Shown here piece by piece: positions 9,519 to 33,006 of a stretch of 64,000 nt of DNA. The position numbers were made by a program, and so were the translations under genes. Positions within the stretch are counted from its first letter, which is position 1; every line of letters starts with the position of its first letter. Origin of the DNA: a bacterium (GTDB lineage Bacteria > Zhuqueibacterota > Zhuqueibacteria > Residuimicrobiales > Krinioviventaceae); assembly GCA_963693055.1 (NCBI GenBank), contig OY843751.1, positions 2,464,001 to 2,528,000 of the forward strand. Reading direction: 5' to 3'. The notes beneath the pieces are model-generated. The model ran no database searches. It saw only the letters and a list, made by a program, of their open reading frames with translations, and was not told the DNA's origin.

Positions 9519-9644
9519 GTTGATAATTATATAGATTTTAACTAGTTTTTAAAAATAATAATCAATATTGGGGGTGTAATTCCAGTTTAAATTCGGAATT
9601 ATTCACTCTTGCAATTCAAATTCTAAAACTCGAGGGGTGTGATT

Positions 9645-12600
9645 ATGCTTAAAAAAGAATTGTATAGAGTAATTCTTTTAACGTTATTTTTTACAACAAT
9701 TGGTTTTACTCAAACCAATATTGAATCGGTTGTTAACGATTTTATTCAAAAGTCAAAATCTAATGATAAAATTATTGATAATATCATTTATTCAATCAAA
9801 AAAGTCGAATCTTTTTCATCATTATTTCCCAATGTATATATTGTAAACCTTAATCCTTCTGGTTTTATTGTAATATCCACTGATGAAAATCTGCCTGAAA
9901 TCTTGGCTTATTCTTTTGATCAAAATTGGACTTTTGATTCTGAGCATCCTTTAGTTAAAATATTATCCAGTGATCTTGAAAAGATTTACTACAGTAATGC
10001 GTACAAGAACATTACTGACCAGTCCAATATGCTTGGTTCAATTTTGGGTACTGATGATTTTCAACAATGGCCACCTGAAAACAGTACCAAAACAGGTGGT
10101 TGGATAGAATCCACATGGCATCAAAATAGCCCTTTTAACGATTTTTGTCCAATGGATGATTTTTTGAAAAATAGATCGTTAGCAGGATGTATTCCAGTAG
10201 CTTTTGCTCAATTGGTAAATTATCATCATTATATTGGCGATTTAAAAGTGAGTCAGCAAGACAGTTATAAAACCCGAACTCGTGGTCTTTTGATAGATCA
10301 ATATAGCGATTCGCTTGATTATCCTGACTTTGAAATGTTGAATTCATATCTTTCAACTATACAGACAAATTATAATAATTTTAATTATTTAACTGACTCT
10401 GAGATTGCGGCCCTAATGTTTGCTTGTGGTTTGATAATTCAAACTGATTACACATATGCATCATCAGGTGCCGTGTTAGCTGATATTGTACCTGTTTTAA
10501 TAGAAAGAATGGGATACAAAAATGCCGATATTATATACGCTTCCGATGATAATTTTTATGAACAGTTGAAACAAAATGCTATAAATGCTTTACCTGTTCT
10601 TTTATCTATGGAAACACATGTGGCAATTGTTGATGGATACAATACTAATGGATACTTTCATTTGAATTTTGGTTGGGGAGATAATTCTCCAAATGCAATA
10701 CAGCAATGTTGGTATTTGTTGCCTTCAGATTTACCATATCAATATCGTGATATATACAGAGGTATATTTAATATTTCACCTTCCCATAAAAATATGCATG
10801 GTCTTAACCCAAGTTGCTACGAGTTACAATTATCTGCTTCAAAAATTCAGAATTATTCAGATTCACAATCTTTTTATATTTATAATAATTATGATATAGA
10901 TGTTGTCGTTGATTCTATTATTACATCCCCAAATTTTTATACAAGCTTGACTAATGACAGCTATGTGCAAAAGTTGACTGATATAACAATTAAGGCTGGT
11001 GATTCCTTAAAGATTTTTGTTAATTGTATGCCAGACACTCTAGGTTTAGTAAAAGGATCGATCAAAGTCGTTGCTATGAATGATGATTTGAAACGATTTA
11101 TAACTTTGGAATTATTTGGATACGGTGTTGAAAATACGGGTTCTGTTGTATATGGTGGAGAAACAAGTGGGATATGGACCAAAGAAAATTCACCTTATTA
11201 TATAATAGATGATATCAGTATAAAGCCTAATAGTAATTTATTAATTGAACCTGGAGTTACAGTATTATTCAAAGGGCCTTATACATTTAATGTTGATAAA
11301 TCTTGTGAATTATTGGCAAAGGGGACAGAATCTGATTCAATAAAGTTTATCTCTCTTAATGATACTGAAAATTGGGCAGGATTTAAAATCTATTATAGTG
11401 GTGATGATGACTCGCTTTTGTTTTGCAATTTTACCGATTTTAAAAATGAAGAAGCTGCCGGTGGAGTGTTTTTTATTAGTAACAGTTCTCCAATTTTCAA
11501 ATCTTGCAAGTTTATAAACAATAGTGCAAATTTAGGCGGCGCCGTTTATTTTACTTCAAGTACCCCCGAGTTTATTCAAACGCATTTTATTAATAATAAT
11601 GCTCCATATGGAGGAGCAGTATATGCACATAATTCTACATCAATATTTTTCCAATCTTTATTCACCAGAAATGTTTCACTTAAAAGAGGTGCTGCTATTT
11701 ATGCCAAAAGTTCATATTTAACTTTGTCAAATGTAACAATTAGTAATAATGTGGCAAGTTATAAATCTGGAAATTCTGGCGTGTTGCATTTAATTGGACC
11801 TGGAAATACATCTATACTTAATTCTATTTTTACATCAAATTATAATATTCATGGAAGCGGACCATTTCATATAACTTTGGAGCAATCTAATTCTCATGAG
11901 AAAAGTACAGTAGCGTTGAATTTTAATTGTTTTGATTCAATTGATGAAGATGCAATTGATCCGGATGTCAACTTGGGGCAACCCGGGAACGATATAATTT
12001 GGGGGTTAGGTAATATAACTGCTGATCCACTGTTTGTTACTCAAACAGGACAAGATTTTCATTTGCAGATTGAATCACCTTGTATTGATGCAGGAGATCC
12101 TGATTCTGATTTTTTGGATGAACCATTCCCACATGGTTTTTGTATTAATATGGGAGCATATGGTGGAACAAAGAGTGCTACAGAGCAACATCACCCCAGA
12201 TTAACGTCTTTACCCAATGCTATTTATTTTACTCAACTATCAAATACTTTTAGAGATAAGAAAAAAATTAATATTGTTAACGGTACAGATAAACTTTTGA
12301 AAATTACTGATTTTGTTTTATCAGATAGTACACATTTTCAAATTAAAAATATAAATGAGCAATATATTAAGAATTCTGAATATATATTGCCTCCCGGTGT
12401 TCAGGACGATTTTAATTTGATAATTGATTTGAATCATACTGATTTGATGGAATTACATGAAACATTAACCATTTCCATTGAGGATGGTGATGATTGTATT
12501 ATCCCTATAGATATTAATTCTATATCAGGAACGAATATTGATTCTCAATTGGTAAGTGGAGTATGGACAAAAGATAAAAGTCCGTATGTTATTAATAATA

Positions 12601-16773: not shown

Positions 16774-18816
16774 ATGAATCCGGTTCCCGTTGTTACGACT
16801 ATTGAACACAAGTGTAAACGCTGTTATTCATGCGTTAGGAATTGTCCTGCCAAAGCTATCAAAGTTGAAAACGGTCAAGCTAAAGTTATGGCCGAACGAT
16901 GTATTGCTTGCGGTTATTGTGTTCGTGTTTGTTCACAAAATGCTAAACAAATTCGAGATGATCTTGCACCAACTTTAGATTTTTTAAAAAATAATACTCC
17001 TGTTGTTGCTATCCTAGCACCATCTTTTCCTGCTGCTTTTCCAGAAAATAATCCAGATACAATTATTTCAGCATTAGCTGAAGCAGGCTTTTCCAAAATA
17101 TTCCCAGTCGCTTTGGGTGCAGACATTGTAAGCTATGAATATCAACTGCTTTATCAATCTAAGGTTATGCCAGTTATTATCTCTTCTCCTTGTCCTGCAA
17201 TTGTGAATTATATAGAGAAATATGATCCTGCTTTGACATTGTGCCTGGCTCCTGTTGTATCACCTATGATCGCTACCGGTCGTTTTCTCAAACAAGCATT
17301 AGGAGAATCTACCCGTATAGTTTTTATTGGTCCTTGCATTGCCAAAAAAAAGGAAATGACAGACAAGAACGTTGCGGGCGTAATTGATGCAGTATTGACT
17401 TTTGAAGAAGTAAAAGCGCTATTTTATCGAATGCATATTGATCCTACAGAATTGCCCCCTCGAGAGTTTGATGGCCCTGAAGTAAATTGGGGAAGGTTGT
17501 TTCCTATATCCGGTGGATTATTGAAAAGTGCTGATCTGCAATCAGATATTATGGATAATGATGTTATCATTACCGAAGGTCGGGACAGGGTTATGGAAAT
17601 TCTTCAAAAATCATCCAATGGTGAAATTGAAGCCAAATTCCTTGATCTTTTATTTTGTGAAGGTTGTATCAATGGACCTAAAATTGACACTCCACTTTCT
17701 GTTTTTGTAAAAAAAGACAAGATTGTTAATTACATTAAAAAGAAGCAGAGTAAAAAGGGTTTTAAAAATTTTATATATCCTATAGATTGTAAACGCAGGT
17801 TCAGTAACGATTATCAGCTAATGCCAGCACCAACACAAAAAGAAATTCAAAATATTTTATATTTCACAGGTAAGCGAAAACCAAATGATGAATTGAACTG
17901 TGGTGCTTGCGGATATAATTCTTGTCGTGAAAAAGCAATTGCAGTTTTTCAGGGACTTGCAGAAGCTGAAATGTGTTTACCCTTTCTTGTAGAAAAACTA
18001 GAAACAATACAGAATAAGCTGGAAACCAATAACAAGGAACTAAATTCTTCAATTGAAGCACTTCAACGCACGCAGGAACAACTTGTGCAATCTGAAAAAA
18101 TGGCCTCGGTTGGTCAACTTGCAGCGGGTGTTGCCCACGAGTTGAATAATCCACTGGGTGGGATTATGGTTTTTGCGAATTTACTGCTTGAGCAAAAAGA
18201 CAAAAATGACCCTGATCTTTCTGATTTGACCCGAATCATTCACGAAGCTGAGAGGTGTAAAGCAATTATCTATGGATTGCTCGATTTTTCACGACAATCG
18301 CACTTGCAAGCTGCTATTGTAAATTTGAATAAAATTATTCTTAGTACTTTGGATCTGGTCAAGCACCAATCATTATTTCAAAAAATAGATATGAAAATTG
18401 AACTCAATCCTACTATTGGTCAAATATTTGCCGATGTGGGGCTTTTACAGCAAATATTTCTGAATATCATTTTCAATGCAGCCGAGGCAATGGAAGGAGA
18501 TGGATGTTTTATTGTTTCGTCTTATATGAGTCAAGATCATAAATATGTCATAGCAGAATTTACTGACACAGGCCCTGGTATGTCTAATGAAATTGTTAAA
18601 CGTATTTTTGATCCTTTTTTTACAACAAAGCCCCCGGGTCAGGGTACCGGTTTGGGATTATCCATGTGCTACAGTATTATCAAGCGTCACAAAGGGGAAA
18701 TCAAAGTGTCCAGCCAGTTGGGAGTAGGCACTACTATAATTATACAATTACCCAATTCAATTGAAATTGAAAAAGATATAACAGAATTATACCCCCATAA
18801 AATTTATTCACTTTAA
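16774..18816 (+). CDS. Sensory (group C-like) [FeFe]-hydrogenase domain fused to an NtrB-type histidine kinase
   Basis: 2x[4Fe-4S] (CKRCYSCVRNCP, CIACGYCVRVC); H-cluster motifs SSPCPAI, GPCIAKKKE, LLFCEGCING; FeS domain NCGACGYNSC...MCLP; H-box AHELNNPL; N, G1, F and G2 boxes (NAAEA, DTGPG, FDPFFTTK, GTGLGL). Alternative TTG start at 16741. Confidence 0.88.
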   Translation: MNPVPVVTTIEHKCKRCYSCVRNCPAKAIKVENGQAKVMAERCIACGYCVRVCSQNAKQIRDDLAPTLDFLKNNTPVVAILAPSFPAAFPENNPDTIISALAEAGFSKIFPVALGADIVSYEYQLLYQSKVMPVIISSPCPAIVNYIEKYDPALTLCLAPVVSPMIATGRFLKQALGESTRIVFIGPCIAKKKEMTDKNVAGVIDAVLTFEEVKALFYRMHIDPTELPPREFDGPEVNWGRLFPISGGLLKSADLQSDIMDNDVIITEGRDRVMEILQKSSNGEIEAKFLDLLFCEGCINGPKIDTPLSVFVKKDKIVNYIKKKQSKKGFKNFIYPIDCKRRFSNDYQLMPAPTQKEIQNILYFTGKRKPNDELNCGACGYNSCREKAIAVFQGLAEAEMCLPFLVEKLETIQNKLETNNKELNSSIEALQRTQEQLVQSEKMASVGQLAAGVAHELNNPLGGIMVFANLLLEQKDKNDPDLSDLTRIIHEAERCKAIIYGLLDFSRQSHLQAAIVNLNKIILSTLDLVKHQSLFQKIDMKIELNPTIGQIFADVGLLQQIFLNIIFNAAEAMEGDGCFIVSSYMSQDHKYVIAEFTDTGPGMSNEIVKRIFDPFFTTKPPGQGTGLGLSMCYSIIKRHKGEIKVSSQLGVGTTIIIQLPNSIEIEKDITELYPHKIYSL

Positions 18817-18868: not shown

Positions 18869-18886
18869 CTGTGAAAAAAATCACAA
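18869..18886. promoter_or_regulatory. Rex/CRP-type operator 1 (CTGTGAAAAAAATCACAA)
   Basis: 12/14 match to the Rex consensus TTGTGAA-N4-TTCACAA and an exact TGTGA-N6-TCACA; just upstream of the -35 box. Confidence 0.65.
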
Positions 18887-18940: not shown

Positions 18941-18958
18941 TTGTGAAAAAAATTACAA
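18941..18958. promoter_or_regulatory. Rex/CRP-type operator 2 (TTGTGAAAAAAATTACAA)
   Basis: 12/14 match to the Rex consensus; just downstream of the predicted +1, a repressor position. Confidence 0.65.
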
Positions 18959-19177: not shown

Positions 19178-19345
19178 ATGATGCACTTTGATTTGAAGTC
19201 TATTCGGGACAATTTTTTTACATCACTCCGGTTGAATATTATTCCGGTATTCAGGAATTCTCATATTCAGAACTTTTTTAATTTTATTCGTGATTTAATT
19301 TTGAGATCTTTAGCCTTTGTAATTTTATTGGAGGCAATAAAATGA
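19178..19345 (+). CDS. Putative 55-aa leader/small protein, not in the ORF track
   Basis: GAGGA at 19170, ATGATG at 19178, open frame MMHFDLKSIRDNFF...VILLEAIK; the stop overlaps the next start as ATGA (19342-19345). Confidence 0.35.
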   Translation: MMHFDLKSIRDNFFTSLRLNIIPVFRNSHIQNFFNFIRDLILRSLAFVILLEAIK

Positions 19346-20409
19346 TTGTAAATGCTGATGATTTTATCAAGTTTTTAAAAACTTGTCAGGAATCAAAATT
19401 GTTAGGATACGAACAGGCAATTGTACCTGTTGTATCGGCTAATCCTAAAAACAAAGAACTTGTTTTTTCTCCTGTTAATACTGAACGCACTATTGAACTC
19501 GATACCACCCGGACCATTGATCCTTTGAAAAATCTGTATTATGTTCCTCGGGAAAAAATTTATCCAACTGAATTCAAGAATATCAAACGAATAATCGCCG
19601 GTGTCAAAGCATGTGATTTAAAAGCCATTTCAATACTCGATAAAGCATTATTGTTAGACAATTTTGTTGATCCTTCTTATGAGCATTGGCGCAATAATAC
19701 ATTGATTATTTCTACAGACTGTTCAGAACCCTCACCTGCATGTCATTGTACTTTAATGGATGGTTCTCCATATCCTAACGCGGGTTTTGATATTAATCTC
19801 TCAAGAGTATTGGGCAATTATCATATAACTGTAGGATCCGATAGAGGAAAACAATTTGTTGAACACATGGCTATGGAAGTAGAGATTGTTGATGCTTTAC
19901 CTGATGTTAAGGATCAGGTTGAAGCAAATCGAAATAAAATGGAAAGATTGATTGAGCAGCTTAACCAGGATTTTGTACGAACTACTGACTATGAAGAAAT
20001 AAGACATGACAGTATTAATGTATGGCAGCAAAGATCAAAGGCTTGCGTTGGCTGCGGTGCTTGTACGAATATTTGTCCTACCTGTTATTGTCTTATATTA
20101 AATGACGAGTCCAAAGCCGAACAGTTTATCAAAGTCAGATCACAGGATTCCTGTCAGTTAAATGGGTACGCTCGTGTTGCAGGAGGTGGGACTCCACGTC
20201 CGCAAATGTTTTCCAGGTTTCGAAATAGATATCTGTGCAAACTTTTATTTATGAAATCAAATTTTGGAGAGATCGGCTGTACAGGTTGTGGACGATGTAC
20301 TGAAGCTTGCCCTGCTCAAATTGATTACCGTCAAGTTGTAGAGGACATTGGTCATGAAACAGCATTTGAAAAAGTTTCTCAGGATAAATTAGAGGGAGAT
20401 GAGTTATGA
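19342..20409 (+). CDS. AsrA/HydB (sulfhydrogenase beta)/FlxB-like 4Fe-4S dicluster protein
   Basis: GVKACD, DCSEPSPACHC, CVGCGACTNICPTCYC, RxxDSC, RFRNR and CTGCGRCTEACP. Confidence 0.85.
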   Translation: MIVNADDFIKFLKTCQESKLLGYEQAIVPVVSANPKNKELVFSPVNTERTIELDTTRTIDPLKNLYYVPREKIYPTEFKNIKRIIAGVKACDLKAISILDKALLLDNFVDPSYEHWRNNTLIISTDCSEPSPACHCTLMDGSPYPNAGFDINLSRVLGNYHITVGSDRGKQFVEHMAMEVEIVDALPDVKDQVEANRNKMERLIEQLNQDFVRTTDYEEIRHDSINVWQQRSKACVGCGACTNICPTCYCLILNDESKAEQFIKVRSQDSCQLNGYARVAGGGTPRPQMFSRFRNRYLCKLLFMKSNFGEIGCTGCGRCTEACPAQIDYRQVVEDIGHETAFEKVSQDKLEGDEL

Positions 20410-21227
20410 GTAATCCGTATGAGGTTATCCCGGCAGTTGTCTATGATGTGATCCAGGAATCTCCACTCATTCGGACATTAAGGGTAAAACCTGAAAAAGC
20501 AATCCCTTTTAAAACCGGTCAATTTATTGAATTGTCCATTCCTGGTATTGGTGAGGGTCCATTTACACCATCTTCATCACATTATATTAATGAAGAAATG
20601 GATATTACTATAATGAAAACAGGCTTTGTTACTGAATATGTTCATCAGGCCCAGATAGGTGATCGTGTAGGATTACGTGGCCCTTATGGTTCCAGCTATC
20701 CGTTAGATAAATTTGAAAACAAAGATTTACTCATTCTGGGTGGTGGTTGTGGTTTAGCACCTTTACGATCCCTTTTTCTGACATTACTGCATGACGTTGA
20801 AAGATACAAGAGTATTACATTTTTTGCAGGGGCTAAAACTCCTCAGGACTGTATTTATAAGGATTCTGTAACTGAATGGAACAAATATGATAATGTCCGC
20901 TTTGTTCGTTCGGTTGATGTTGTGCCGGATGGAGAGGATTGGGATGAAAATGTGGGCCTGGTTACTACATTGTTAGAACGACTCGATTTAACACCGGATG
21001 GGAATCCTGCCGTTGTATGTGGACCTCCCATTATGATGCGTTTTGGTACAATGGATTTATTGAATTATGGATTTAAAGAAGAAAATATCTATTTATCGAT
21101 GGAAAAAAAAATGTATTGTGGTTTTGGACAGTGTCGTCATTGTGTAATGGGCGGCTATTATGCCTGCAAAGATGGCCCCGTATTTTCTTATGCTGATATA
21201 AAGAATGAGGAGGACATTTGGGAATGA
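20406..21227 (+). CDS. AsrB/HydG (sulfhydrogenase gamma)/FlxA-like FAD/NAD(P)-binding [2Fe-2S] oxidoreductase
   Basis: GQF, RGPYG, GGGCGLAPLRS, CGPPIMM, EKKMYCGFGQCRHC...CKDGPVF. Confidence 0.9.
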   Translation: MSNPYEVIPAVVYDVIQESPLIRTLRVKPEKAIPFKTGQFIELSIPGIGEGPFTPSSSHYINEEMDITIMKTGFVTEYVHQAQIGDRVGLRGPYGSSYPLDKFENKDLLILGGGCGLAPLRSLFLTLLHDVERYKSITFFAGAKTPQDCIYKDSVTEWNKYDNVRFVRSVDVVPDGEDWDENVGLVTTLLERLDLTPDGNPAVVCGPPIMMRFGTMDLLNYGFKEENIYLSMEKKMYCGFGQCRHCVMGGYYACKDGPVFSYADIKNEEDIWE

Positions 21228-21727
21228 AACGTCTTTTTATTGATGTGCCCGGCCTGCTGGATGCCAATGTTTCGGCAGAGTCAATAGATTGTGAATACAT
21301 GTTTCATCGTTATAACCATGGAGCATTTTCATTACTTGAAGTTGCGGAATTTGCTTCTTATTGCCGCCAATGTACCGAATCGTTTTGTGTAAATGCTTGT
21401 CCGGTTGAAGCTCTTGAACGTCAACCCTCAGGAACAATTAAACGTTTCAATATGAGATGTGTTGGCTGTAAAAGCTGTATTTTAGCTTGTCCTTTTGGGA
21501 CTATATTCCCCGAAGTTATTAATTACATAACAGCAAGATGTGATTATTGTTTGAACCAGTTAGAGGCTGATCCGAATTATCAACCGGCATGTGTCAAATC
21601 GGCTCCGCACGATACTTTTGTGATGAAAGACATTGAACAAGAGAATCCGAAAGAACATGTCTATCTATACGGAGAACACCTGGCCGTTAAAAGTCCAAGC
21701 TGGCGTTATAAGGAGGGATTGGTATGA
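21224..21727 (+). CDS. HycB/CooF/DmsB-like 4Fe-4S electron-transfer protein
   Basis: CRQCTESFCVNACP, CVGCKSCILACPFG, RCDYC...PACV; ATGA overlaps at both ends. Confidence 0.85.
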   Translation: MKRLFIDVPGLLDANVSAESIDCEYMFHRYNHGAFSLLEVAEFASYCRQCTESFCVNACPVEALERQPSGTIKRFNMRCVGCKSCILACPFGTIFPEVINYITARCDYCLNQLEADPNYQPACVKSAPHDTFVMKDIEQENPKEHVYLYGEHLAVKSPSWRYKEGLV

Positions 21728-22653
21728 ATCTGGAATTGATTTTCTTTTTGTTGATATTCCCCGGCTTTTTATTTACCAGCATTCTGGGGATGACTGTTGG
21801 TTGGATTGATCGCAAAGTCTCTGCAAGATTTCAATATCGTGTTGGCCCTCCATTTTTACAGAACTTTAATGACTTTTTCAAATTACTGGGTAAGGAAACC
21901 ATTATTGTTAAAGACAGTGTGCACTCCCTTTTCATCTCTGCACCGTTTATTGCGTTTGCTGTGTTGGTGTTATTGTCTACCATCATAGGTGTTGCTTTAT
22001 TTTTTAATCAGGGCTTTGGCGGTGATTTGTTTGTTATCATGTATCTCTTGATGGTTTTTTCTGTTATGGTTGTATTGGGTGGTTCTGCAACCGGTAATGT
22101 CTATTCAAGTATTGGAGCTGGCAGAGAGATAAAATTATTGCTGGCTGATGAACTGGTTTTCATTCTAATCTGTTTGGTACCTGTCATTAAATCCGGTTAT
22201 CAACTTGATCTCCTGGGAATACTTACCGCCCAAGCACAAAGTGGAGTTTTTATCAATTCATTTTCTGGTGCAATTGCCTTTGTATTAGGTCTATTGTGCA
22301 TACAAGCCAAAATGACACTGCCGCCATTTCATATACCCGAAGCTGAAACTGAAATAGTTGAAGGACCCTTTATGGAATACAGCGGTCCACCACTTGCTTT
22401 CTGGAAATTGAACCATTTTCTCATGTGGGTGATTTTACCATTTTTACTGGTACTTTTGTTTATGGGTGGCTTTAATCTGCAAGGAATGGGTATCCTTTGG
22501 GCAGTACTCAAATATCTGCTTATCGTTGTTTTGATGATTATCATTAAAAATACAAACCCCCGTATCAAAATAGATACAGCATTAAACTTTTTCTGGAAAT
22601 ATGCTACCCCCTTGGGACTCGTTGCAATCATTTTAGCCGTGTTAGGAGTGTAA
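21724..22653 (+). CDS. Membrane-bound hydrogenase subunit, complex I subunit 1 family (NuoH/HycD/MbhM-like)
   Basis: DRKVSARFQYRVGPP...DFFKLLGKE and PFHIPEAETEIVEGPFMEYSG; multi-TM. Confidence 0.9.
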   Translation: MNLELIFFLLIFPGFLFTSILGMTVGWIDRKVSARFQYRVGPPFLQNFNDFFKLLGKETIIVKDSVHSLFISAPFIAFAVLVLLSTIIGVALFFNQGFGGDLFVIMYLLMVFSVMVVLGGSATGNVYSSIGAGREIKLLLADELVFILICLVPVIKSGYQLDLLGILTAQAQSGVFINSFSGAIAFVLGLLCIQAKMTLPPFHIPEAETEIVEGPFMEYSGPPLAFWKLNHFLMWVILPFLLVLLFMGGFNLQGMGILWAVLKYLLIVVLMIIIKNTNPRIKIDTALNFFWKYATPLGLVAIILAVLGV

Positions 22654-22655
22654 AT

Positions 22656-23075
22656 ATGGGATGGTATAATAAACGTCTTGCCAAATCGATATGGGTGTTT
22701 CATGTGAGCGCATCACCCTGTAATAATTGTGATATAGAAGTATTGGATCTGTTGACACCCAAATATGATCTTGAACGATTAGGGATCAAGCTGGTAGGCT
22801 CGGTACGTCATGCTGATGTTTTGCTGTTGAGTGGTATTATTAATCAAAAAGTGGCACCACGGGTAAAGCAGCTATATGACCAGGCTCCTAAACCCGTATT
22901 TGTAGTGGGAGTCGGTACCTGCCCATCCGGAGGCAGTTGCTTCAATAACAGTTACAATAAAGTCATGTCACGAGAAGATGTAATTCCCATTGATCTCTAT
23001 ATCCCCGGATGTCCTCCCAAACCGGAGGCTATGATTGAAGGTGTTGCAAAGCTTTTGGAGGTGCTGAATGCCTGA
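22656..23075 (+). CDS. Group 4 [NiFe]-hydrogenase small subunit (NuoB/HycG/MbhJ-like)
   Basis: CNNCDIE, RHADVLL, GTC and IPGCPPKPEA (single 4Fe-4S). Confidence 0.92.
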   Translation: MGWYNKRLAKSIWVFHVSASPCNNCDIEVLDLLTPKYDLERLGIKLVGSVRHADVLLLSGIINQKVAPRVKQLYDQAPKPVFVVGVGTCPSGGSCFNNSYNKVMSREDVIPIDLYIPGCPPKPEAMIEGVAKLLEVLNA

Positions 23076-23499
23076 TGTGAAATCTTTTATCGATAAAATG
23101 GGTGATCGAATAACCAATACGGTTGAAAAACCATTGCGTCTCTATTTTGAGGTTCCTGCTGAACATGTCAAAGAAGTAACGGGTTATCTGTTTAATGAAC
23201 TAGGGTGCCGGTTATCAACAGCAACAGCTACCGAAGTATATAGGGGAATTGAAGTATTGTATCATTTTTCTGATGATGAAACCGGTCAGTATTACTGTCC
23301 CCGAGTTGTTATGACAGACAAAGATAGTCCCACAATGCCTTCAATAACTCCTATTGTTCAGGGTGCGGAATGGATTGAAAGAGAGATGAACGAGTTTTGG
23401 GGAGTAATTTTTACAGACCATCCTAAACCAGAACGCCTTTTGTCAAAAGACCATCCCGAAAATCTGGATAAACCCTTACGCTTCAGGAGGCTGTCATGA
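23068..23499 (+). CDS. NuoC/MbhK-like hydrogenase subunit
   Basis: LYHFS...PSITP...AEWIEREMNEFWGVIFTDHP. Confidence 0.88.
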   Translation: MPDVKSFIDKMGDRITNTVEKPLRLYFEVPAEHVKEVTGYLFNELGCRLSTATATEVYRGIEVLYHFSDDETGQYYCPRVVMTDKDSPTMPSITPIVQGAEWIEREMNEFWGVIFTDHPKPERLLSKDHPENLDKPLRFRRLS

Positions 23500-24695
23500 A
23501 TGTTAATGGAACCACCAATACTGTTCCGGTAGGTCCTTTTCATCCGCTTTTGGAAGAAGCTGAATACTTTAATATCGTTGTTGATGGTGAAACCATTGTT
23601 GACATTGATATTGATATAGGCTGGATGCACAGAGGCCATGAGTATCTTTCTGAACAACGCACATTTACCCAGTCCATTTACCTGGTTGAACGTATATGTG
23701 GAATTTGTTCCACTTCGCACCCCCTTGCATGTGTGCATGCTATTGAGGATATAGACAATATTGAAATCCCATTGAGGGCACGTTATATTCGCACCTTGGT
23801 TGGCGAATTGGAACGTATACACAGTCATTTGTTGTGGCTGGGTCTGGCCGGTCATTTTATTGGTTATGATACATTGTGGATGTGGTCATGGAAATACCGA
23901 GAGCCTATTTTGCAAATGTTTGAGATTATCTCCGGTAACCGCAACCATTATGGAATGATGCGGGTAGGAGGCGTTGCACAGGATGTGGATCCGGATAAAA
24001 TACCCATCTTGATTGATCATATGGATGAAATTGCTCAAAAGATGGACATGATTGCCAAAGCTGCCAATGATGATCCGGTTTTAAAATCACGTCTTGTCGG
24101 AGTTGGTGTGCTTACTCATGAAGATGCGATCAATTATTGCGCGGTAGGTCCAACGTCACGCGCATCGGGTGTACCTGCGGATGTACGTAAATCAGAGGAT
24201 ACTGACGCTTATTCTTTGATCGATTGGAATGTCATCGTCCTTGAGCATGGTGATGTTTATGACAAGCTGGTCGTTCGTGTATTGGAAACCGTTGAATCGA
24301 TCAAGATCTGCAAAATCTGTCTGGAAAAGCTCAAAACCGTGCAAGGTCCGATTCTAAATAAAGTTAAGGAAATTTCACCTGGGGAGGGTATTGGTAGATA
24401 TGAAGCTCCACGTGGTGAAGTTTTTCATTATATTCGTTCAGATGGCACTAACAGGCCTATTCGCCACAAGGTACGTGCCCCGAGTTTTGTTAATATTCCA
24501 ACCTTTGCTGCAACATGCAAAGGCGCTTCACTTGCAGATGCATTAATTACTACTGCTTCTGTTGATCCGTGTTATTGTTGTACAGAACGATCCTTACGTG
24601 TCAAAGATACAGGTTCAAATGTTCTGGATGTGGATTTACTGGAACTTTCCCGAATAAAGACCAATGAAATCAGGAGGGAGATCCATGGAGTTTAA
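23496..24695 (+). CDS. Group 4 [NiFe]-hydrogenase large subunit (MbhL/HycE-like)
   Basis: GPFHP, GWMHRGHE, L1 ERICGICS, ELERIHSHLLW, EAPRGE, L2 DPCYCCTER followed by a ~34-aa C-terminal extension. Confidence 0.95.
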   Translation: MNVNGTTNTVPVGPFHPLLEEAEYFNIVVDGETIVDIDIDIGWMHRGHEYLSEQRTFTQSIYLVERICGICSTSHPLACVHAIEDIDNIEIPLRARYIRTLVGELERIHSHLLWLGLAGHFIGYDTLWMWSWKYREPILQMFEIISGNRNHYGMMRVGGVAQDVDPDKIPILIDHMDEIAQKMDMIAKAANDDPVLKSRLVGVGVLTHEDAINYCAVGPTSRASGVPADVRKSEDTDAYSLIDWNVIVLEHGDVYDKLVVRVLETVESIKICKICLEKLKTVQGPILNKVKEISPGEGIGRYEAPRGEVFHYIRSDGTNRPIRHKVRAPSFVNIPTFAATCKGASLADALITTASVDPCYCCTERSLRVKDTGSNVLDVDLLELSRIKTNEIRREIHGV

Positions 24696-26496
24696 TACGC
24701 TGGTTTTACTTGTTACTGTCCCTCTGGGGATTGCTGTACTGAATCTGGTTTTACCCACATTACTACAAAAACTGTCAATGGTTGTGGGGACATTGAGTTT
24801 AATGTGGTTTTCTTTTTTGCTCTATAAAAGCGGCAATATGGTTTGGGATATGAATGATCAGGTGTTTTTACAAACTACACCCTTGTCGGTTTTATGTATT
24901 GTATTTGTTCAAATTATTTCCTTTATCATTCTGCTATTTGCGATAAAAGGTATGAATCCTGATCTTGAGCACAGGTTTTTCATTTTGTTTCCATTAACTA
25001 TTGCCTTAAGTAATGGTGCGTTGGCGAGTGATCATAGTATCTTTTTTCTCATATTTTGGGGGTTTTCAGGTGTGTTGCTTTATCTGTTTGGTGTAATGTC
25101 CGGAAATGGAGATGCATCTCAATCTGCTAAAAAGACATTCATGATTATTGGTGGTAGCGATGCATTTTTAATTATGGGCTTTGCTATTTTGTGGACCCTG
25201 CAGCCCGGTTCCAACTGGTCTTTAAACGCATTAAATGTTCCTCTCGATAGTGGCATGTCATGGTTGGCATTGATATTTTTACTTTTGGCTGCTTTTGCCA
25301 AAGCTGGATGTTTTCCTTTCCATACCTGGGTGCCGGATTACAGTCGGGATACGCATGTAGAAGCCGTAGTTTTGCTGCCTGCATCGATTGACAAACTTTT
25401 GGGTATTTACCTGTTGGCCATGATTGTAACTGTATTTTTTCAAGCCACTTTGTTACTGCACATGATACTGATCACTGTAGGTGCGGTTTCTATTATTACC
25501 GCGGTTATGATGGCGTTAACACAGCATGATGGTCGTCGTTTGCTAGGTTACCATGCTGTTAGTCAGGTTGGATATATGGTGCTGGGTGTTGGCAGCGGCA
25601 ATTTGATTGCTTTTGCAGGTGGGTTGTTCCACATGATCAATAATGTGTTATACAAAAGCGGATTGTTTCTTTCTATGGGTGCGGTTGAGAAAAAGACCGG
25701 TACACATGATCTTGATAAACTTGGTGGACTAGCTCGCTGTATGCCTTTAACATTCATAATGGCTTTGGTAGCAGCGTTATCTATTTCAGGAATTCCTCCT
25801 TTTAATGGATTTTTCTCCAAATGGATGATTTACCAGGGATTGGTTGAAATGGCTGGTTCCATGGCACCGGGCTATCAGCTTTGGTTATTGTTGTGTTTAA
25901 TTCTGGCTGTCTTTGGTAGCGCATTAACCCTTGCCAGTTTTCTGAAATTTATCCATGCTGTATTTCTGGGCAAACGTCCTGAAAAATACAACAATGTTGA
26001 TGAAGCACCAGCTAATCAATGGCTTTCAACCGGAGTTCTGGCATTATTATGTTTGGTTTTCGGATTATTTGCTATACAGGTTCCGCTAAAACTTTTTATA
26101 CTTCCCATTGCGGGTGTTTCTATAGAGTCCCTGCCATTTATTGGATTATATCAGCCGGTTATTATTTCTATACTATTTTTAATAATGCTAATCTTTGGTT
26201 TATTGATATATCGTACTGCCCGCACTGTTCGGTATGATCAAAATTATATTGGTGGCATGCCGGCCCATGAAAAATACCGCGTTTCCGGTACCGGATTTTA
26301 TAACGAAATACGTCGCATGTCTCCGCTCAAAGCATTGTATGATGCTGCTGAGAAAAAGATATTTGATATTTATAATCAGGGAGCCGGTATTACCAATGGT
26401 TTTGCGGCCTTGTTCCAAAAAGCCCATCCGGGTCAGTTACAGTTGTACCTGTTGTATATGATAATCGGTTTGTTGATTTTTATTTTCCTTATTTAG
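24685..26496 (+). CDS. Antiporter-like subunit (MrpA N-terminal part/NuoL/MbsH'-like) with C-terminal lateral helix
   Basis: AGGAGG before ATG 24685; KAGCFPFHTWVP, RRLLGYHAVSQVGY, HMINNVLYKSGLFL and GIPPFNGFFSKW; hydrophilic tail then a final TM helix. Confidence 0.88.
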   Translation: MEFNTLVLLVTVPLGIAVLNLVLPTLLQKLSMVVGTLSLMWFSFLLYKSGNMVWDMNDQVFLQTTPLSVLCIVFVQIISFIILLFAIKGMNPDLEHRFFILFPLTIALSNGALASDHSIFFLIFWGFSGVLLYLFGVMSGNGDASQSAKKTFMIIGGSDAFLIMGFAILWTLQPGSNWSLNALNVPLDSGMSWLALIFLLLAAFAKAGCFPFHTWVPDYSRDTHVEAVVLLPASIDKLLGIYLLAMIVTVFFQATLLLHMILITVGAVSIITAVMMALTQHDGRRLLGYHAVSQVGYMVLGVGSGNLIAFAGGLFHMINNVLYKSGLFLSMGAVEKKTGTHDLDKLGGLARCMPLTFIMALVAALSISGIPPFNGFFSKWMIYQGLVEMAGSMAPGYQLWLLLCLILAVFGSALTLASFLKFIHAVFLGKRPEKYNNVDEAPANQWLSTGVLALLCLVFGLFAIQVPLKLFILPIAGVSIESLPFIGLYQPVIISILFLIMLIFGLLIYRTARTVRYDQNYIGGMPAHEKYRVSGTGFYNEIRRMSPLKALYDAAEKKIFDIYNQGAGITNGFAALFQKAHPGQLQLYLLYMIIGLLIFIFLI

Positions 26497-26520
26497 TCAT
26501 ACAGGAGCATGGAGGATACT

Positions 26521-27072
26521 ATGCCTGTTGAAACATGGTTGACATTTACATTAGGATTTATGGTTATTGGATCCATTGTAGCGTTGGAAATCAAAGACAT
26601 TCTTTCTTCAATTATTGCCATTGGCATTGTGGGCCTGGCTGTATCGGTTTCATTCCTGTTTTTGCAGGCCCCTGATCTTGCGATTGTTCAATTTTTATTT
26701 GAGATATTTGCTTTAATCATTCTGGTGCGTGCGTTTATATCCAAAGAAAACCACGAGATGGAACCCGTCAAGGCTGGTAAAATGATAACTGCAATATCAA
26801 TCCTCGTATTAATTGCTATTTTTGCCGGCAGTATCCAGTTCTTTCGCTTAATGCCGGCTTTTGGTGATCCGATTTTGGGAACAGCAGCTCACTATTTGGA
26901 AAACGGTGCAGTTGAGACGGGCGCAGCAAATCTGGTTAGCTCAATAATTTTAGATTATCGTGCTTATGATACACTGGGTGAGGTTACCGTTTTGTTTACC
27001 GCTATATTGGGAACCATAACTATTTTAAGAATACGGACAAATTCAAAACAGACAGGAGGTACCGAGTCATGA
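26521..27072 (+). CDS. MbhD+MbhE fusion (DUF4040 + MrpA C-terminal part)
   Basis: LQAPDLAIVQ and NLVSSIILDYRAYDTLGEVTVL motifs. Alternative start 26509. Confidence 0.88.
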   Translation: MPVETWLTFTLGFMVIGSIVALEIKDILSSIIAIGIVGLAVSVSFLFLQAPDLAIVQFLFEIFALIILVRAFISKENHEMEPVKAGKMITAISILVLIAIFAGSIQFFRLMPAFGDPILGTAAHYLENGAVETGAANLVSSIILDYRAYDTLGEVTVLFTAILGTITILRIRTNSKQTGGTES

Positions 27073-27518
27073 ATGATAAGAAAGGAATGACATTGATAGT
27101 AAAAACAGTCTCTCGTCTCTCTGTTTGGTTAATTCTACTGTATGGTATGTATATCATTTTGCATGGACATCTAACTCCGGGTGGAGGCTTTGGTGGAGGC
27201 GTAATCATCGCTTTGGCATTTTTAAACATACTGCTTGCCTATGGTAAAGACTTTACTCAGTCCTGGATCAATATTCATGCATTTGAGCGATTTGAAAGTT
27301 TAAGCGCACTATTGTTCCTCATTATTGGTATCGTTGGTATTGCAACAGGTGTTTCGTTCCTGTTTAATTTTCTTCAACATGGTTCGCTGTTTCATTTGTT
27401 AAGTGCCGGTACAATTCCGGTTTTAAATATTATTATTGGCATCAAAGTATCATTGTCACTGTTTCTTGTGATTTGGGTTTTGGCCGGTATTAAAATAGCC
27501 AAAGGAGACAACGCATGA
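27069..27518 (+). CDS. mnhB: Mrp/Mnh antiporter subunit B (MbhF-like)
   Basis: HGHLTPGGGFGGG signature. Confidence 0.9.
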   Translation: MNDKKGMTLIVKTVSRLSVWLILLYGMYIILHGHLTPGGGFGGGVIIALAFLNILLAYGKDFTQSWINIHAFERFESLSALLFLIIGIVGIATGVSFLFNFLQHGSLFHLLSAGTIPVLNIIIGIKVSLSLFLVIWVLAGIKIAKGDNA

Positions 27519-27853
27519 TCATCTATTATTTGTGTTTTGCGCTCTTTCTTGTGGGAGTGTATGGAGTATTAACAAAACGGGATTTAATTAAAATCATTCT
27601 CTCGGTTGCAATTATGGGGTATGCAGCAAATATGTTTTTAATCCTGTTTGCTTATAAAAAGGATGCCATTTATCCCATTCTCACAAGTACAGAAAATATT
27701 AAAGCCATGGTAGATCCTTTACCTCAGGCGCTAGTTTTAACGTCTATTGTTATTGAGCTGGGTACAACTGCGTTACTGGTAGCACTAGCAGTTAAATTGT
27801 TTGAAAAATATAAAACCTTTGATATTACCAAAATAAGGAGATTGCACGGATGA
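27515..27853 (+). CDS. mnhC: Mrp/Mnh antiporter subunit C (MbhG-like)
   Basis: DPLPQALVLTSIVI signature; 3 TM. Confidence 0.92.
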   Translation: MIIYYLCFALFLVGVYGVLTKRDLIKIILSVAIMGYAANMFLILFAYKKDAIYPILTSTENIKAMVDPLPQALVLTSIVIELGTTALLVALAVKLFEKYKTFDITKIRRLHG

Positions 27854-29325
27854 TTCTACCGACTTTTATTGTCATCCCCCTGGCGGCTGCCTTTCTTATT
27901 ACCCTTATTGCAGGTAAAAAAGATATCTGGGGAATTGCCATTGCACTGGTTGCTACACTAGCGTTACTGATTCTATCCGTTTCCGAATTTATAACATTGG
28001 ATGGTGAAACTCAAACATATGAAATGGGAGGGTGGATTGTTCCAATCGGAATTGTGTTGGTCAAAGACGCATTAACCTGTTTTATGCTTATTATCAGCAG
28101 TTTGATAGCCTTTACATCTTTATTGTATTCCATACAATATATCCGTCATCTTTCAATGGATTGGAAATACTATGCATTGTTTATGCTGCTGCTTGCAGGA
28201 ATGAATGGTGTAACTATTACCGGTGATTTGTTTAATCTTTTTGTCTTTATGGAAGTAGCATTACTGGCCGCTTTTTCACTTGTTGCTTATGGAGGCAGAG
28301 CAGAAGAGTTTGAAGCTTCGTTCAAATACGCTGTAATGGGTGCCGTTTCATCCAGTATTGTGCTTATTGGTATTGCGGTAACATATACCACCACTTCTAC
28401 TCTGACATTGGCTGGTATTGCCAAAGCACTGCATGCTGCTGATCCCGCACTTGCATTATGGATTGGTGCTATATTCCTTGCCGGATTTGGGCTCAAAGCT
28501 GCTGCCATGCCGTTTCATGCATGGCTGCCGGATGCACACTCTTCTGCACCCGCGCCAATATCTTCAATGTTGTCAGGAGTATTGATAAAGGTTTTAGGAA
28601 TCTATGTACTGGTTAGGATATTTTTCAATGTATTGGGAGCGCCGCAACTTTTTATGACTCTGTTCCTGATCATTGGTGGAATATCGGTTGTGATCAGCGG
28701 ATTGCTATCCGTTGGACAATGGGATATAAAACGATTGCTTGCTTATAGCAGTATCAGCCAGATTGGTTATATTTTGCTGGGTTTGGGTTTGGCAACCCCT
28801 TTGGGCATATTGGGGGCGGTTTTCCATATGTTTAATCATGCCGTATTCAAAGCCTTATTGTTTTATAATGCGGGCAGTGTTGAAATGATAACCGGCACCC
28901 GTGATCTCCACAAGATGGGAAACCTGGGCAAGCTGATGCCTGTAACCTCGGCTACTTCATTAATTGCATCACTAGCGATTTCGGGAATTCCTCCTTTTAA
29001 TGGATTTTTTAGCAAGCTTTTAATCATTATTGCGCTTGTACAGGCCGGGCATCCCGTATATGCTATTATTGCTATTGCGGGCAGTTTGTTGACTCTTGCC
29101 GCCTTGATGAAAGTACAACGTCATGGCTTTCACGGAGATGCTGAAATGGTTGAGCCTAAAGAAAAAATTGGCTGGAACATGAATTTAGCCATGATTGTAC
29201 TTGCTGTAATCTGTGTTGTTTCCAGCTTGTTGCTGCTACCCGGCATCAAAGAAGTAACCCTTGATCCTGTTGTGACAGTCATTGTTGAAAATGCAAAATA
29301 TACCCAGTTTGTTATGGGGAGGTAG
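27850..29325 (+). CDS. mnhD: Mrp/Mnh antiporter subunit D (MbhH-like)
   Basis: TGDLFNLFVFMEV, KAAAMPFHAWLPDAH, KRLLAYSSISQIGY, NHAVFKALLF. Confidence 0.92.
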   Translation: MILPTFIVIPLAAAFLITLIAGKKDIWGIAIALVATLALLILSVSEFITLDGETQTYEMGGWIVPIGIVLVKDALTCFMLIISSLIAFTSLLYSIQYIRHLSMDWKYYALFMLLLAGMNGVTITGDLFNLFVFMEVALLAAFSLVAYGGRAEEFEASFKYAVMGAVSSSIVLIGIAVTYTTTSTLTLAGIAKALHAADPALALWIGAIFLAGFGLKAAAMPFHAWLPDAHSSAPAPISSMLSGVLIKVLGIYVLVRIFFNVLGAPQLFMTLFLIIGGISVVISGLLSVGQWDIKRLLAYSSISQIGYILLGLGLATPLGILGAVFHMFNHAVFKALLFYNAGSVEMITGTRDLHKMGNLGKLMPVTSATSLIASLAISGIPPFNGFFSKLLIIIALVQAGHPVYAIIAIAGSLLTLAALMKVQRHGFHGDAEMVEPKEKIGWNMNLAMIVLAVICVVSSLLLLPGIKEVTLDPVVTVIVENAKYTQFVMGR

Positions 29326-29327
29326 GC

Positions 29328-29834
29328 ATGAATTTAAAATTAAAAAGTCGCATTATTGTTTTTATCTTGTCTTTCCTGGTTTGGATTGCGTTAACAAGCT
29401 ATAAAGATGTTCAGGAGATTGTTGCCGGATTGATTGTCGCGTTCATAGTATCCTGGGCTGCCGGACATTTCTTTATCACTACTGAAAAACAGCATGGTAC
29501 AATTAGGCGAATATTTGCAGCCATTCGATATATGTTTAAATTCTTGTTTGAAATGATTCGGGCCAATTTGCATGTAGCCTATATTGTTGTGCATCCTAAT
29601 TTACCTATCAAGCCGGGTATTGTAAAAATAAAATCTAATCTTACCAAAGATTCAGCATTGACCATACTGACAAATTCAATCACACTTACACCAGGAACAT
29701 TAACCATTGATATCAATCCTGATACCAAAGAGATTTATATTCACTGGATTGATGTTTTATCCACAAAAATTGAAGAAAATACCCAAAACATCGGACAACG
29801 TTTTGAACCCTTGTTGATGGAGGTGTTTGAATGA
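29328..29834 (+). CDS. mnhE: Mrp/Mnh antiporter subunit E (MbhA-like)
   Basis: PGIVKI...LTNSITLTPGTLT...YIHWI. Confidence 0.92.
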   Translation: MNLKLKSRIIVFILSFLVWIALTSYKDVQEIVAGLIVAFIVSWAAGHFFITTEKQHGTIRRIFAAIRYMFKFLFEMIRANLHVAYIVVHPNLPIKPGIVKIKSNLTKDSALTILTNSITLTPGTLTIDINPDTKEIYIHWIDVLSTKIEENTQNIGQRFEPLLMEVFE

Positions 29835-30169
29835 GAATCTTGAGATGGATTGTTGGATTCATTCTGATAACAGCTTTTTTTGTATACAATTTTGTTTTTT
29901 ATGATGGCCTTTTGCTCTTTAAACTGATCAATGTCAGTCTGTTTTGTACGTTGTTTGTGCTTTATAGAGTAATTGTAGGGCCTACACCAGCTGACCGAAT
30001 TGTTGCTGTTGATATTTTGGGTGTATTGATTGTGGGTATGCTTGCTATTCTTGGTATGTATTATGATCAAAATTTTTTCCTGGATATAGCCTTGATTTGG
30101 GCGTTATTGAGTTTTATTGCATCACTGGCTTTTTCAAAAATCCTTGAAGGGAGGCAGTTGGATGATTAG
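29831..30169 (+). CDS. mnhF: Mrp/Mnh antiporter subunit F (MbhB-like)
   Basis: RVIVGPTPADRIVAVD...DIALIWALLSFI. Confidence 0.9.
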   Translation: MRILRWIVGFILITAFFVYNFVFYDGLLLFKLINVSLFCTLFVLYRVIVGPTPADRIVAVDILGVLIVGMLAILGMYYDQNFFLDIALIWALLSFIASLAFSKILEGRQLDD

Positions 30170-30500
30170 AGAAAATATAGGCATGGTTTTTATTTTTATC
30201 GGCATTGCTTTTGATTTCTTTGGTGTGTTGGGACTCGTACGATTGCCGGATGTTTATAATCGGCTGCAAGCAGCAACAAAATGCGTAACCTTTGGATCAG
30301 CTGGTATATTGTTTGGCGTGTTTCTGATCTATGGATTTAACAATTTTGGATTCAAAGCTATATTGGGAATTATATTTATCTTTTTAACATCACCCGTTGC
30401 CGCGCATGTCATTTCACGAGCAGCACATCGCAGTGGAATTCCGTTAACCCCGGAAACAGTTATTGACGAGTATCAGAACGATAATGAATTAAAAGATTAA
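30162..30500 (+). CDS. mnhG: Mrp/Mnh antiporter subunit G (MbhC-like)
   Basis: GLVRLPDVYNRLQAATK and TSPVAAHVISRAA; ATG 30162 after GGAGG. Confidence 0.92.
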   Translation: MIRENIGMVFIFIGIAFDFFGVLGLVRLPDVYNRLQAATKCVTFGSAGILFGVFLIYGFNNFGFKAILGIIFIFLTSPVAAHVISRAAHRSGIPLTPETVIDEYQNDNELKD

Positions 30501-30530
30501 TTAAACATTAACCTCTTTTGGAGACGTTAT

Positions 30531-31133
30531 ATGTTTTTACCCAAATTACGTGAAATCAAAGAAGCGCTGACTTCCTTTTTCAGTGCGCCATATACAACAA
30601 AATTCCCGGCAGAACCGTTTACCGCGGCCAAAGAATATAGAGGTCATCCCCGCTATAATGCTGAATTTTGTATTGGTTGTGGTACTTGCTCTCAGGTATG
30701 CCCTTCAGGTGCCATATCATTTGAGGATGATATTAAAAATGCCACCCGAACTTTGACAGTGGATTATAATGTTTGTATAAATTGTGGGCAATGCCAGGAG
30801 CATTGTATTACTGAACGCGGCATAACTCTGACCAATGAGCACTCGCTGGCTTATATGGATAAAACAGTTCCTGAATCTAAAGAATCTTTGGAACGAGAGT
30901 TGGCAATCTGTGAAAGCTGTGGTAAAGTAGTTGCCTGTAAGAGTCATTTGGTTTGGATTAAAGAACGGCTTGGAGCCAAAGCATATGCGCACCCCAATTT
31001 TATACTGCAAACCCAGGAACAGTTTTTTAATCTTGATCCATATCATGTCAAAAGCCAGATCAGACGTGAAGACCAGTTTAAAATGGTTTGCGCAAAATGC
31101 AGGAATATGATTGTGGTTGTAGATGAATTTTAA
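30531..31133 (+). CDS. NuoI/HycF/MbhN-like 2x[4Fe-4S] hydrogenase subunit
   Basis: PYTTKFP...RG, CIGCGTCSQVCP, CINCGQCQEHC, plus extra CESC and CAKC pairs as in HycF. Confidence 0.9.
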   Translation: MFLPKLREIKEALTSFFSAPYTTKFPAEPFTAAKEYRGHPRYNAEFCIGCGTCSQVCPSGAISFEDDIKNATRTLTVDYNVCINCGQCQEHCITERGITLTNEHSLAYMDKTVPESKESLERELAICESCGKVVACKSHLVWIKERLGAKAYAHPNFILQTQEQFFNLDPYHVKSQIRREDQFKMVCAKCRNMIVVVDEF

Positions 31134-31596
31134 TGATTTAAAAACAGCGTTATCACCTTATTATCCCTCAGATATTGTATTTCTTGCCCTGGGCAATACT
31201 TTTAGAGGTGATGATGGTGTGGGAATTATTTTTACTCAATACTTGCAAAATACTCAAGAGTTTAGTTGTGCTAATTTTATCTTTGCATATACTACACCTG
31301 AAAATTATTTACAGCAGATTATTGAAATAAAGCCCAAATTGATTGTTTGTATTGACTCGGCCCGGATGGGGAGCGGGCCGGGGGATATTCAGTGGTTGTC
31401 TCCTTCAATGCTGGATTCATTCAGAATCAGCACTCATGCATTTTCAATTTTAATGATAGAAACGTATCTGAAAAATTTTACCCAGTCTCATTTTTTTTAT
31501 ATTGGGATTGAACCGCAACAAACCCTGCCGGATCAAGGCTTATCTCATATTGTAGAAAATCAATTGGCCCTTTTTTTTAAAACAGTTCTTGTATGA
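31123..31596 (+). CDS. Hydrogenase maturation endopeptidase (HycI-like)
   Basis: LGNTFRGDDGVG, TPEN, IDS, STH and GIEP; last gene of the operon. Confidence 0.9.
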   Translation: MNFNDLKTALSPYYPSDIVFLALGNTFRGDDGVGIIFTQYLQNTQEFSCANFIFAYTTPENYLQQIIEIKPKLIVCIDSARMGSGPGDIQWLSPSMLDSFRISTHAFSILMIETYLKNFTQSHFFYIGIEPQQTLPDQGLSHIVENQLALFFKTVLV

Positions 31597-32967: not shown

Positions 32968-33006
32968 GGTAAACCATTTTTAACTACTAGTTAATTGGGA
33001 TATAAT

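Follow-up and report, generated by a model that had tools for sequence, protein, structure and literature searches.

The window, as we call the whole 64 kb stretch of DNA analysed here, carries a gene in which a [FeFe]-hydrogenase-type sensor is fused to a histidine kinase, in a genome where the maturase genes hydE, hydF and hydG were not found. The question that this locus raises is what the kinase senses: H2, if the protein is matured, or redox state, if it is loaded only with Fe-S clusters. The first-pass annotation had put the choice in these terms, and we judge it to be the right one. For the HydS proteins studied to date, no enzymatic output is described and the interaction partners are still to be identified (PMC13104023).

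Structure and classification of the sensor kinase

The ORF starts with ATG and encodes 680 aa (Table 1), the length of its closest homologue, which is matched with 100% coverage; an alternative upstream TTG at 16741 would give 691 aa. Pfam models placed a Fer4 dicluster domain at aa 11–57, Fe_hyd_lg_C (PF02906) at aa 76–302 (E = 1.2e-48), an FeS domain (PF04060) at aa 374–403, HisKA at aa 447–508 and HATPase_c at aa 554–661, and no PAS domain was found by Pfam at E≤0.001. In the AlphaFold2 (AF2) model (mean pLDDT 87.4, pTM 0.65), a single helix is predicted to span residues 402–474, from the last Fe-S cysteine to the phosphorylated histidine. Foldseek matched one half of this model to [FeFe]-hydrogenases (E about 2e-19) and the other to ZraS (9e-20) and also to CckA; among the matches listed, none spans both halves. 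The key kinase residues H455, N564, D598, G600, G626 and G628 are all present. Thus, the reading of a PAS-less protein in which an FeS domain and a coiled coil lead directly into an intact kinase was borne out.

Table 1. Positions of the sensor kinase, its motifs, the adjacent operon and the candidate partner genes (window coordinates, except where marked genome)
Feature	Position	Strand	Basis or remark
[FeFe]-hydrogenase-type sensor fused to histidine kinase, putative HydDB C1 type, 680 aa	16774..18816	+	Pfam, AF2, Foldseek
N-terminal 2x[4Fe-4S] ferredoxin-like domain (C14, C17, C20, C24, C43, C46, C49, C53)	16813..16932	+	Pfam Fer4
H-domain: APS 82-84, P1 137-141, SP 163-164, P2 186-194, P3 291-298	16999..17679	+	Pfam, alignments
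P1 SSPCP (S137-S-P139-C140-P)	17182-17196	+
P2 GPCxxKxxE (G186-P-C188-x2-K191-x2-E194)	17329-17355	+
P3 DLLFCEGC (D291-L-L293-F-C295-E-G-C298)	17644-17667	+
C-terminal Cx2Cx4Cx16C Fe-S motif (C376, C379, C384, C401)	17899..17976	+	PF04060; typical of HydS groups C and D (PMC8163306)
Predicted coiled-coil signalling helix, running on into the DHp helix; no PAS	17977..18111	+	AF2 helix 402-474, Pfam
HisKA and HATPase_c with N, G1, F and G2 boxes; H455 at 18136-18138	18112..18756	+	Pfam, alignment
Two Rex-like palindromes 5′ of the [NiFe] operon	18869-18886, 18941-18958	.	Two mismatches each to Rex consensus
Membrane-bound group-4-type [NiFe] hydrogenase operon	19342..31596	+	Pfam/NCBIfam; labels for 26509-31133 by eye
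[NiFe] large subunit, both CxxC motifs	23496-24695	+
HycI protease	31123-31596	+
Host REC and REC-PAS-HK genes, hydABC head	genome 3328674-3330556 (REC-PAS-HK 3328674-3330143)

The eight cysteines of the N-terminal dicluster are invariant across homologues (8/8 Cys in 67/67 sequences). All four H-cluster cysteines (C140, C188, C295 and C298) were located by Pfam and alignment, and they lie in the sensory variants of the motifs that the first-pass annotation had named, SSPCP, GPC and LLFC-EGC. Compared with CpI, P139 occupies the position of the proton-transfer cysteine C299, G186 that of M353 and L293 that of M497. P3 is one residue shorter than in the solved group A enzymes, with C295 and C298 spaced as CxxC, not CxxxC. 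A82-P83-S84, S163-P164 and K191 align with CpI A230-P231-S232, S323-P324 and K358, which we take to line the [2Fe] site and to bind cyanide.

The 2x[4Fe-4S] domain, the Cx2Cx4Cx16C motif and the replacement of the proton-transfer cysteine and framing methionines are all features of HydS-type proteins (groups C and D). With its H-domain and kinase, the protein appears to fit HydDB group C1, which is listed as 'histidine kinase-linked (putative)' (PMC5037454), in agreement with its initial description as a kinase-linked, group C or HydS-like protein. Two other placements were rejected. Catalytic group A would have TSCCP or TSCSP, MPC and ExMAC in place of SSPCP, GPC and DLLFC, together with the proton-transfer set E279/E282/R286; the NCBIfam A and B1 models scored far under their cut-offs (98.9 bits against 405.95 for TIGR02512, group A). 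Group C in the sense of the biochemical literature (M2f) has a C-terminal PAS domain, where Pfam found none and AF2 predicts a continuous helix.

When homologues were searched for, 3665 clusters were returned at E≤1e-100 among 8000 scored candidates. The best 120 of these 3665 all have the H-domain, the FeS domain and the two kinase domains, with a KSB1 label on several. The hydrogenase-kinase fusion is a catalogued and abundant kind of putative function, and is less rare than the first-pass annotation implied. In a tree of 67 kinases, made by a quick method and rooted at the midpoint, there are three clades: kinases within hydABC (26 sequences), the window's clade (32 sequences, SH-aLRT 95) and a tandem partner (nine sequences).

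The adjacent [NiFe] hydrogenase operon

A [NiFe] hydrogenase operon that had been overlooked in the first reading starts 525 bp 3′ of the kinase gene and is co-oriented with it. It includes genes for sulfhydrogenase beta/gamma-like subunits, a ferredoxin, NuoH/B/C-like proteins, the large subunit, antiporter-like proteins and HycI, and the large subunit is the sole PF00374 match in the host genome. The leading AsrA/AsrB-like and ferredoxin genes (19342-21727) are kept in family relatives, and suggest a NAD(P)H-linked input to an Mbh-like complex. The hypA-F genes, hypD among them, are elsewhere (genome 2122402-2139839), where they adjoin heme O synthase-like and alternative complex III-like genes, labelled by eye, and heme-copper oxidase subunit I. 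As a heme-copper oxidase is encoded, the host is probably facultative.

Kinases of the window's clade adjoin [NiFe] structural or hyp genes in 28/32 loci (27/31 relatives and the host). In three of these loci only hyp genes are seen, and six are on short contigs with just one or two operon genes. Two of the four remaining loci end at a contig edge, one heads hydABC and one precedes an NtrC-type gene. Some Hyf-type group 4 large subunits encoded beside these kinases have an in-frame stop at the second cysteine of the N-terminal CxxC (L022, at 413-415, where it is TGA, L027, L028, L033, L034, L040 and L057). This is a selenocysteine variant that has already been described, KSB1 included (PMC13582414).

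Two Rex-like palindromes lie between the kinase and the operon. The Rex consensus used also resembles a CRP/FNR box. The host genome has two such pairs at ≤2 mismatches, the other being 5′ of a rex paralogue at 1309366, and a near-identical box is found approximately 60 bp 5′ of rex at genome 4395747. Among the loci scanned, paired 2-mismatch sites at this operon were otherwise seen only in the same-genus genome; at ≤3 mismatches no enrichment of the pattern was seen across the window (13 against 9.5). The paired boxes suggest NADH/NAD+ control of the operon. No sigma-54 (-24/-12) site was found 5′ of the [NiFe] operon, the sensor kinase or the hydABC head, though RpoN is encoded in the genome, and we therefore do not claim that an NtrC activator drives the operon. 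Scans for sigma-70 promoters and terminators gave counts at chance (15 against 13.7 and 3 against 1.8). As no sigma-54 promoter was found and Rex-like boxes are present, direct control of the operon by the kinase pathway is putative.

Elsewhere in the window, two tandem secreted paralogues of approximately 1850 aa (3963-15242) have a cysteine-protease-like N-terminus (GCVATAM and GCIPVAF), which we take to be peptidase C10-like, beta-rich repeats and a C-terminal sorting-type domain. Three tandem lipoprotein-like paralogues of approximately 150 aa (32521-33931) keep their cysteine motifs (NCC...CxCxC). A carbohydrate-utilization region (37531-60827) has, by eye, a LacI-type regulator, amylase-like glycoside hydrolases, TonB-dependent receptor-like genes, sodium:solute symporters and a ribulokinase-like gene.

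Candidate partners of the kinase

The first-pass annotation had found neither a response regulator nor hydEFG in the window, and no REC-domain or hydEFG gene was identified among its ORFs, which were read by eye and scanned in part. In 24/31 relatives' loci the kinase is followed by one or more REC genes and a REC-PAS-HisKA-HATPase (REC-PAS-HK) gene, and in several the order is kinase, REC, REC-PAS-HK, rex and the same [NiFe] operon. In the host and in G001, G005, G014 and G017, the REC/REC-PAS-HK pair lies instead at the hydABC head, where it follows an NtrC-type sigma-54 activator; it was found in this position in 0/13 other same-order hydABC loci checked. In G004, it is the window-clade kinase itself that stands at the hydABC head. 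The host REC-PAS-HK nests within the kinase-adjacent copies in a FastTree phylogeny, and the neighbouring REC proteins have no DNA-binding domain. The REC gene of the host pair is at genome 3330140 and the NtrC gene at 3331130; further REC genes are at 3330573, 3322023 and 3321604, a second REC-PAS-HK gene at 3320136 and the paralogue kinase at 3322430. A protein of approximately 120 aa, which we take to be DRTGG-like, had no match at the strict thresholds used.

As the usual follower genes were found 0.85 Mb away, at the hydABC head, the kinase is probably not an orphan, and its likely cognates, judged from gene order and phylogeny, are this REC and REC-PAS-HK. We found no paper that joins group C1, [NiFe], a kinase and a response regulator.

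H-domain genes and missing maturases

The host genome is a single contig of 6.54 Mb, is 100% complete and has seven H-domain genes. Two of these encode the HydA proteins of a double hydABC cluster and two encode kinase fusions; the others are for an MCP fusion, a short enzyme of group-B-like type and a PAS-type HydS next to rex. This full set of [FeFe] types, from the double HydABC and second kinase fusion to the MCP fusion, group-B-like enzyme and rex, lies without hydEFG at genome 814390-816549, 3313927-3328647 and 4390229-4395747. A gene labelled by eye as SpoIIE-like accompanies the PAS-type HydS, which together with the group-B-like enzyme and rex makes up a set that we take to resemble the hfs arrangement.

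The HydG, HydE, BATS and HydF_dimer models had no match anywhere in the complete host genome, and control genomes were positive as expected. Even at E≤0.001 the HydG and HydE models returned nothing from the host, though they match paralogues in the control genomes, and the HydF model returned only GTPase-domain matches far under its cut-off. When HydE, HydF and HydG from two relatives were used as tblastn queries against the host genome, no maturase was found, and HydE and HydG gave nothing at E≤0.01. No ORF with a radical-SAM motif lies beside any host H-domain gene, and no candidate for a substitute maturase adjoins any of them, in a survey of gene neighbourhoods rather than of genome-wide co-occurrence. 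As hydE, hydF and hydG are missing from its genome, the sensor kinase was not classed as a canonically matured [FeFe]-hydrogenase.

H-domain genes are present in 41/41 same-order genomes, host included. HydG and HydF exceeded their cut-offs in the same 5/41 (2/29 of the high-quality ones), and canonical hydEFG is present in 5/41 close relatives. In a sample of 113 genomes from the phylum, each at least 90% complete, HydG was found in seven and HydF in six. A HydA match at E≤1e-150 was returned from 46 of these genomes, and HydG was found in six of the 46 but not in the other 40, a count taken over mostly draft assemblies from kin that are not independent.

Outside the phylum, 23 genomes were picked for a full-length or near-full-length relative of the kinase; HydF exceeded its cut-off in 14/23 and HydG in 12/23 of these genomes, whose completeness is not established. 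Maturase genes adjoin the kinase in 6/23 non-KSB1 loci. In one locus, L108, a kinase with the motif set TTPCP, GPC and DVLFCEGC is encoded in one operon with hydE/G/F, and five of the ten non-KSB1 kinases with an LFCxGC motif are from HydF-positive genomes. Four Ignavibacteria-related records (L099, L101, L103 and L107) have the same hydCBA-kinase-REC-REC/PAS/HK layout, and neither HydG nor HydF was found in them, their completeness again not being established; the maturase gap may extend beyond the host phylum.

Archaea and protists are reported to have [FeFe] enzymes that are active although maturases are missing, and Greening et al., who found full maturases in 5/130 archaeal genomes, proposed an alternative pathway (PMC11216029). 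Our search of a mostly open-access literature returned no description of maturase-free [FeFe] hydrogenases in a bacterial order, and the passages on maturation in the Zhuqueibacterota paper concern [NiFe] hydrogenases.

Conservation of the [2Fe] pocket without maturases

We compared 59 kinases from 33 genomes without a HydG or HydF match, pooling the three paralogue clades and dropping fragments with <80% coverage. A82, P83, C140, S163, P164, P187, C188, K191, E194, C295 and C298 are identical in 59/59, S84 is S in 57 and T in two, and position 139 is P, S or A, never C; the background is 40/227 invariant H-domain columns. The motifs are alike in kinases from maturase-positive and maturase-negative genomes.

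HydA sequences were treated in the same way, using 50 from 31 genomes without a HydG or HydF match and leaving out three of a third HydA type. E280, E283, S320, M354, K359 and M498 (CpI E279, E282, S319, M353, K358 and M497) are kept in 50/50 and R287 (CpI R286) in 49/50, against a background in which 40/119 polar columns reach 98%. P1 in these HydA is TSCSP, as in A. woodii HydA1. An apo protein has no known need of the proton-transfer residues, and so their retention without maturases favours real H-cluster chemistry in vivo, with structural constraint as a possible cause.

What the kinase may sense

From the observed anatomy, conservation, maturase gene absence and synteny, we infer the cofactor loading, ligand, partner and target. 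Our preferred explanation, to which we give an even chance, is that the sensor kinase detects H2 through an H-cluster obtained without the help of HydEFG. It would be a soluble histidine kinase with a HydS-type [FeFe]-hydrogenase module, carrying the full H-cluster, as its input half. H2 would reduce the H-cluster, slow for want of the proton-transfer cysteine, and the N-terminal clusters; a conformational change passing through the C-terminal Fe-S domain to helix 402–474 would then switch autophosphorylation at H455. The phosphoryl group would go to the stand-alone REC and the REC-PAS-kinase encoded at the hydABC head, and the output would adjust enzymes that evolve H2 or balance redox, the adjacent [NiFe] complex and HydABC being the most plausible targets.

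The H2-sensor explanation is favoured by the pocket residues kept in kinases and HydA without maturases, and by the same motif set beside hydE/G/F in L108. Thermoanaerobacter mathranii HydS (TamHydS), although without C299 and M353, is reported to bind [2Fe], and it and Thermotoga maritima HydS (TmHydS) to turn over H2 slowly (PMC8163306, PMC10407848). As the C-terminal cluster of TamHydS is reported not to be reduced by H2 (PMC13104023), electrons are unlikely to be simply relayed to the helix, and by analogy the C-terminal cluster of the sensor kinase is probably structural. Against an H2 sensor stand the lack of any hydE, hydF, hydG or BATS-domain gene and the P3 motif, one residue short of that in group A, and the conserved pocket residues could be structural. 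We know of no protein with a shortened P3 that has been shown to bind [2Fe].

The main alternative, though rather unlikely, is that the protein binds four [4Fe-4S] clusters only, responds to the ferredoxin/NADH poise or to damage by O2 and controls the [NiFe] complex, with HydABC serving as electron-transfer modules without H2 turnover. The H-domain fold is used in this way, with Fe-S clusters only, in Nar1. An apo sensor would suit the shortened P3, a probably facultative host and the absence of maturases from the host and from 36/41 same-order genomes; the sole hydrogenase that can be matured canonically is the adjacent [NiFe] enzyme, given HypD, and it is to [NiFe] or hyp genes that the clade is tied. 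However, the [2Fe] pocket and the proton-transfer residues of HydA show little or no variation in genomes without maturases, the motifs do not differ with maturase status and half of the non-KSB1 LFCxGC kinases come from HydF-positive genomes. The first-pass annotation had held that a genome without maturases, together with no cofactor binding, would speak against a hydrogenase-based sensor. Maturases are indeed missing from the complete genome, but this does not refute cofactor binding, because the catalytic HydA are also without maturases and yet keep [2Fe]-specific residues.

It is considerably more doubtful that maturases are present but too divergent or unrelated to detect, or that the finished [2Fe] unit is taken from community members, which would make the sensor a canonical HydS. 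This is a form of the H2-sensor explanation without new chemistry. The full conservation of the pocket agrees with it, and the canonical hydEFG of a few close relatives implies a pathway compatible with these enzymes, but the profile searches, which match paralogues in the controls, and the tblastn searches returned no HydE or HydG, and no radical-SAM ORF lies beside the H-domain genes. Most improbable, and disfavoured, is a relic: after a recent loss of hydEFG, the [FeFe] genes would be in decay and the kinase either constitutive or no longer used. Maturases are patchy in the order and the partner genes have been lost from the kinase locus in the host genus, but dN/dS against the same-genus orthologue is 0.051 overall and 0.068 in the H-domain, the HydA-bearing genomes without HydG span many families, and the HydG of G004 and G021 are 43% identical where the HydA_II of each is 79–82% identical to that of the host, which would fit separate gains better than recent losses.

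Implications

It is possible, though we would stop short of calling it probable, that the H-cluster is made or taken up without HydEFG throughout a bacterial order, in which a kinase with an [FeFe]-type H2 sensor controls a [NiFe] hydrogenase. If so, it would offer a closed bacterial genome in which to find alternative H-cluster maturation, so far proposed only for archaea and protists, and a single-chain HydS giving a direct enzymatic read-out of sensing. Signal transfer in sensory [FeFe]-hydrogenases becomes testable, as the fusion can be read out by autophosphorylation and candidate partners are provided by comparative genomics. So do H-clusters without HydEFG, in a lineage where selection maintains catalytic HydABC alongside as many as four sensor types and in which no maturase genes were found in most genomes. 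Either a maturation or uptake route is not yet described, or the number of [FeFe] genes in such genomes suggests more H2 metabolism than there is. The kind of protein is familiar; its maturase-free, [NiFe]-linked setting with displaced partners is new.

Comparison with known systems

HydDB C1 proteins, described as proposed H2 sensors, likewise tie a group C-type H-domain to a histidine kinase (PMC5037454). Here, the kinase is fused in frame without PAS, the clade is tied to [NiFe] operons and the host is without hydEFG. TmHydS (group C, M2f) and TamHydS (group D, M2e) share the 2x[4Fe-4S] domain, the H-domain and the Cx2Cx4Cx16C motif with the sensor kinase (PMC8163306). C299 is replaced in all three (PMC8163306, PMC10407848), M353 by Gly here as in TmHydS and M497 by Leu here as in TamHydS (PMC8163306). 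While the C-terminus of TmHydS is a PAS domain and TamHydS is without an output domain, the Fe-S domain here passes straight into the DHp helix. At the C299 position the sensor kinase has Pro and its relatives have Ser or Ala, and the likeness to TmHydS and TamHydS is drawn from their published description rather than their sequences.

The regulatory [NiFe] hydrogenase-HoxJ-HoxA system (HydDB group 2b) also couples an H2-sensing hydrogenase to a histidine kinase, and there the kinase governs [NiFe] hydrogenase expression. Here, by contrast, an [FeFe]-type sensor and the kinase form one chain, which probably signals to a stand-alone REC and a REC-PAS-HK, and the search for a sigma-54 site at the [NiFe] operon was negative.

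Maturase-free archaea and protists are reported to have H-domain enzymes in genomes without HydEFG (PMC11216029), as here. In contrast, the lineage described here is bacterial and free-standing, and its genomes have as many as eight H-domain genes each, in a set that includes bifurcating-type HydABC together with kinase, PAS and MCP sensors.
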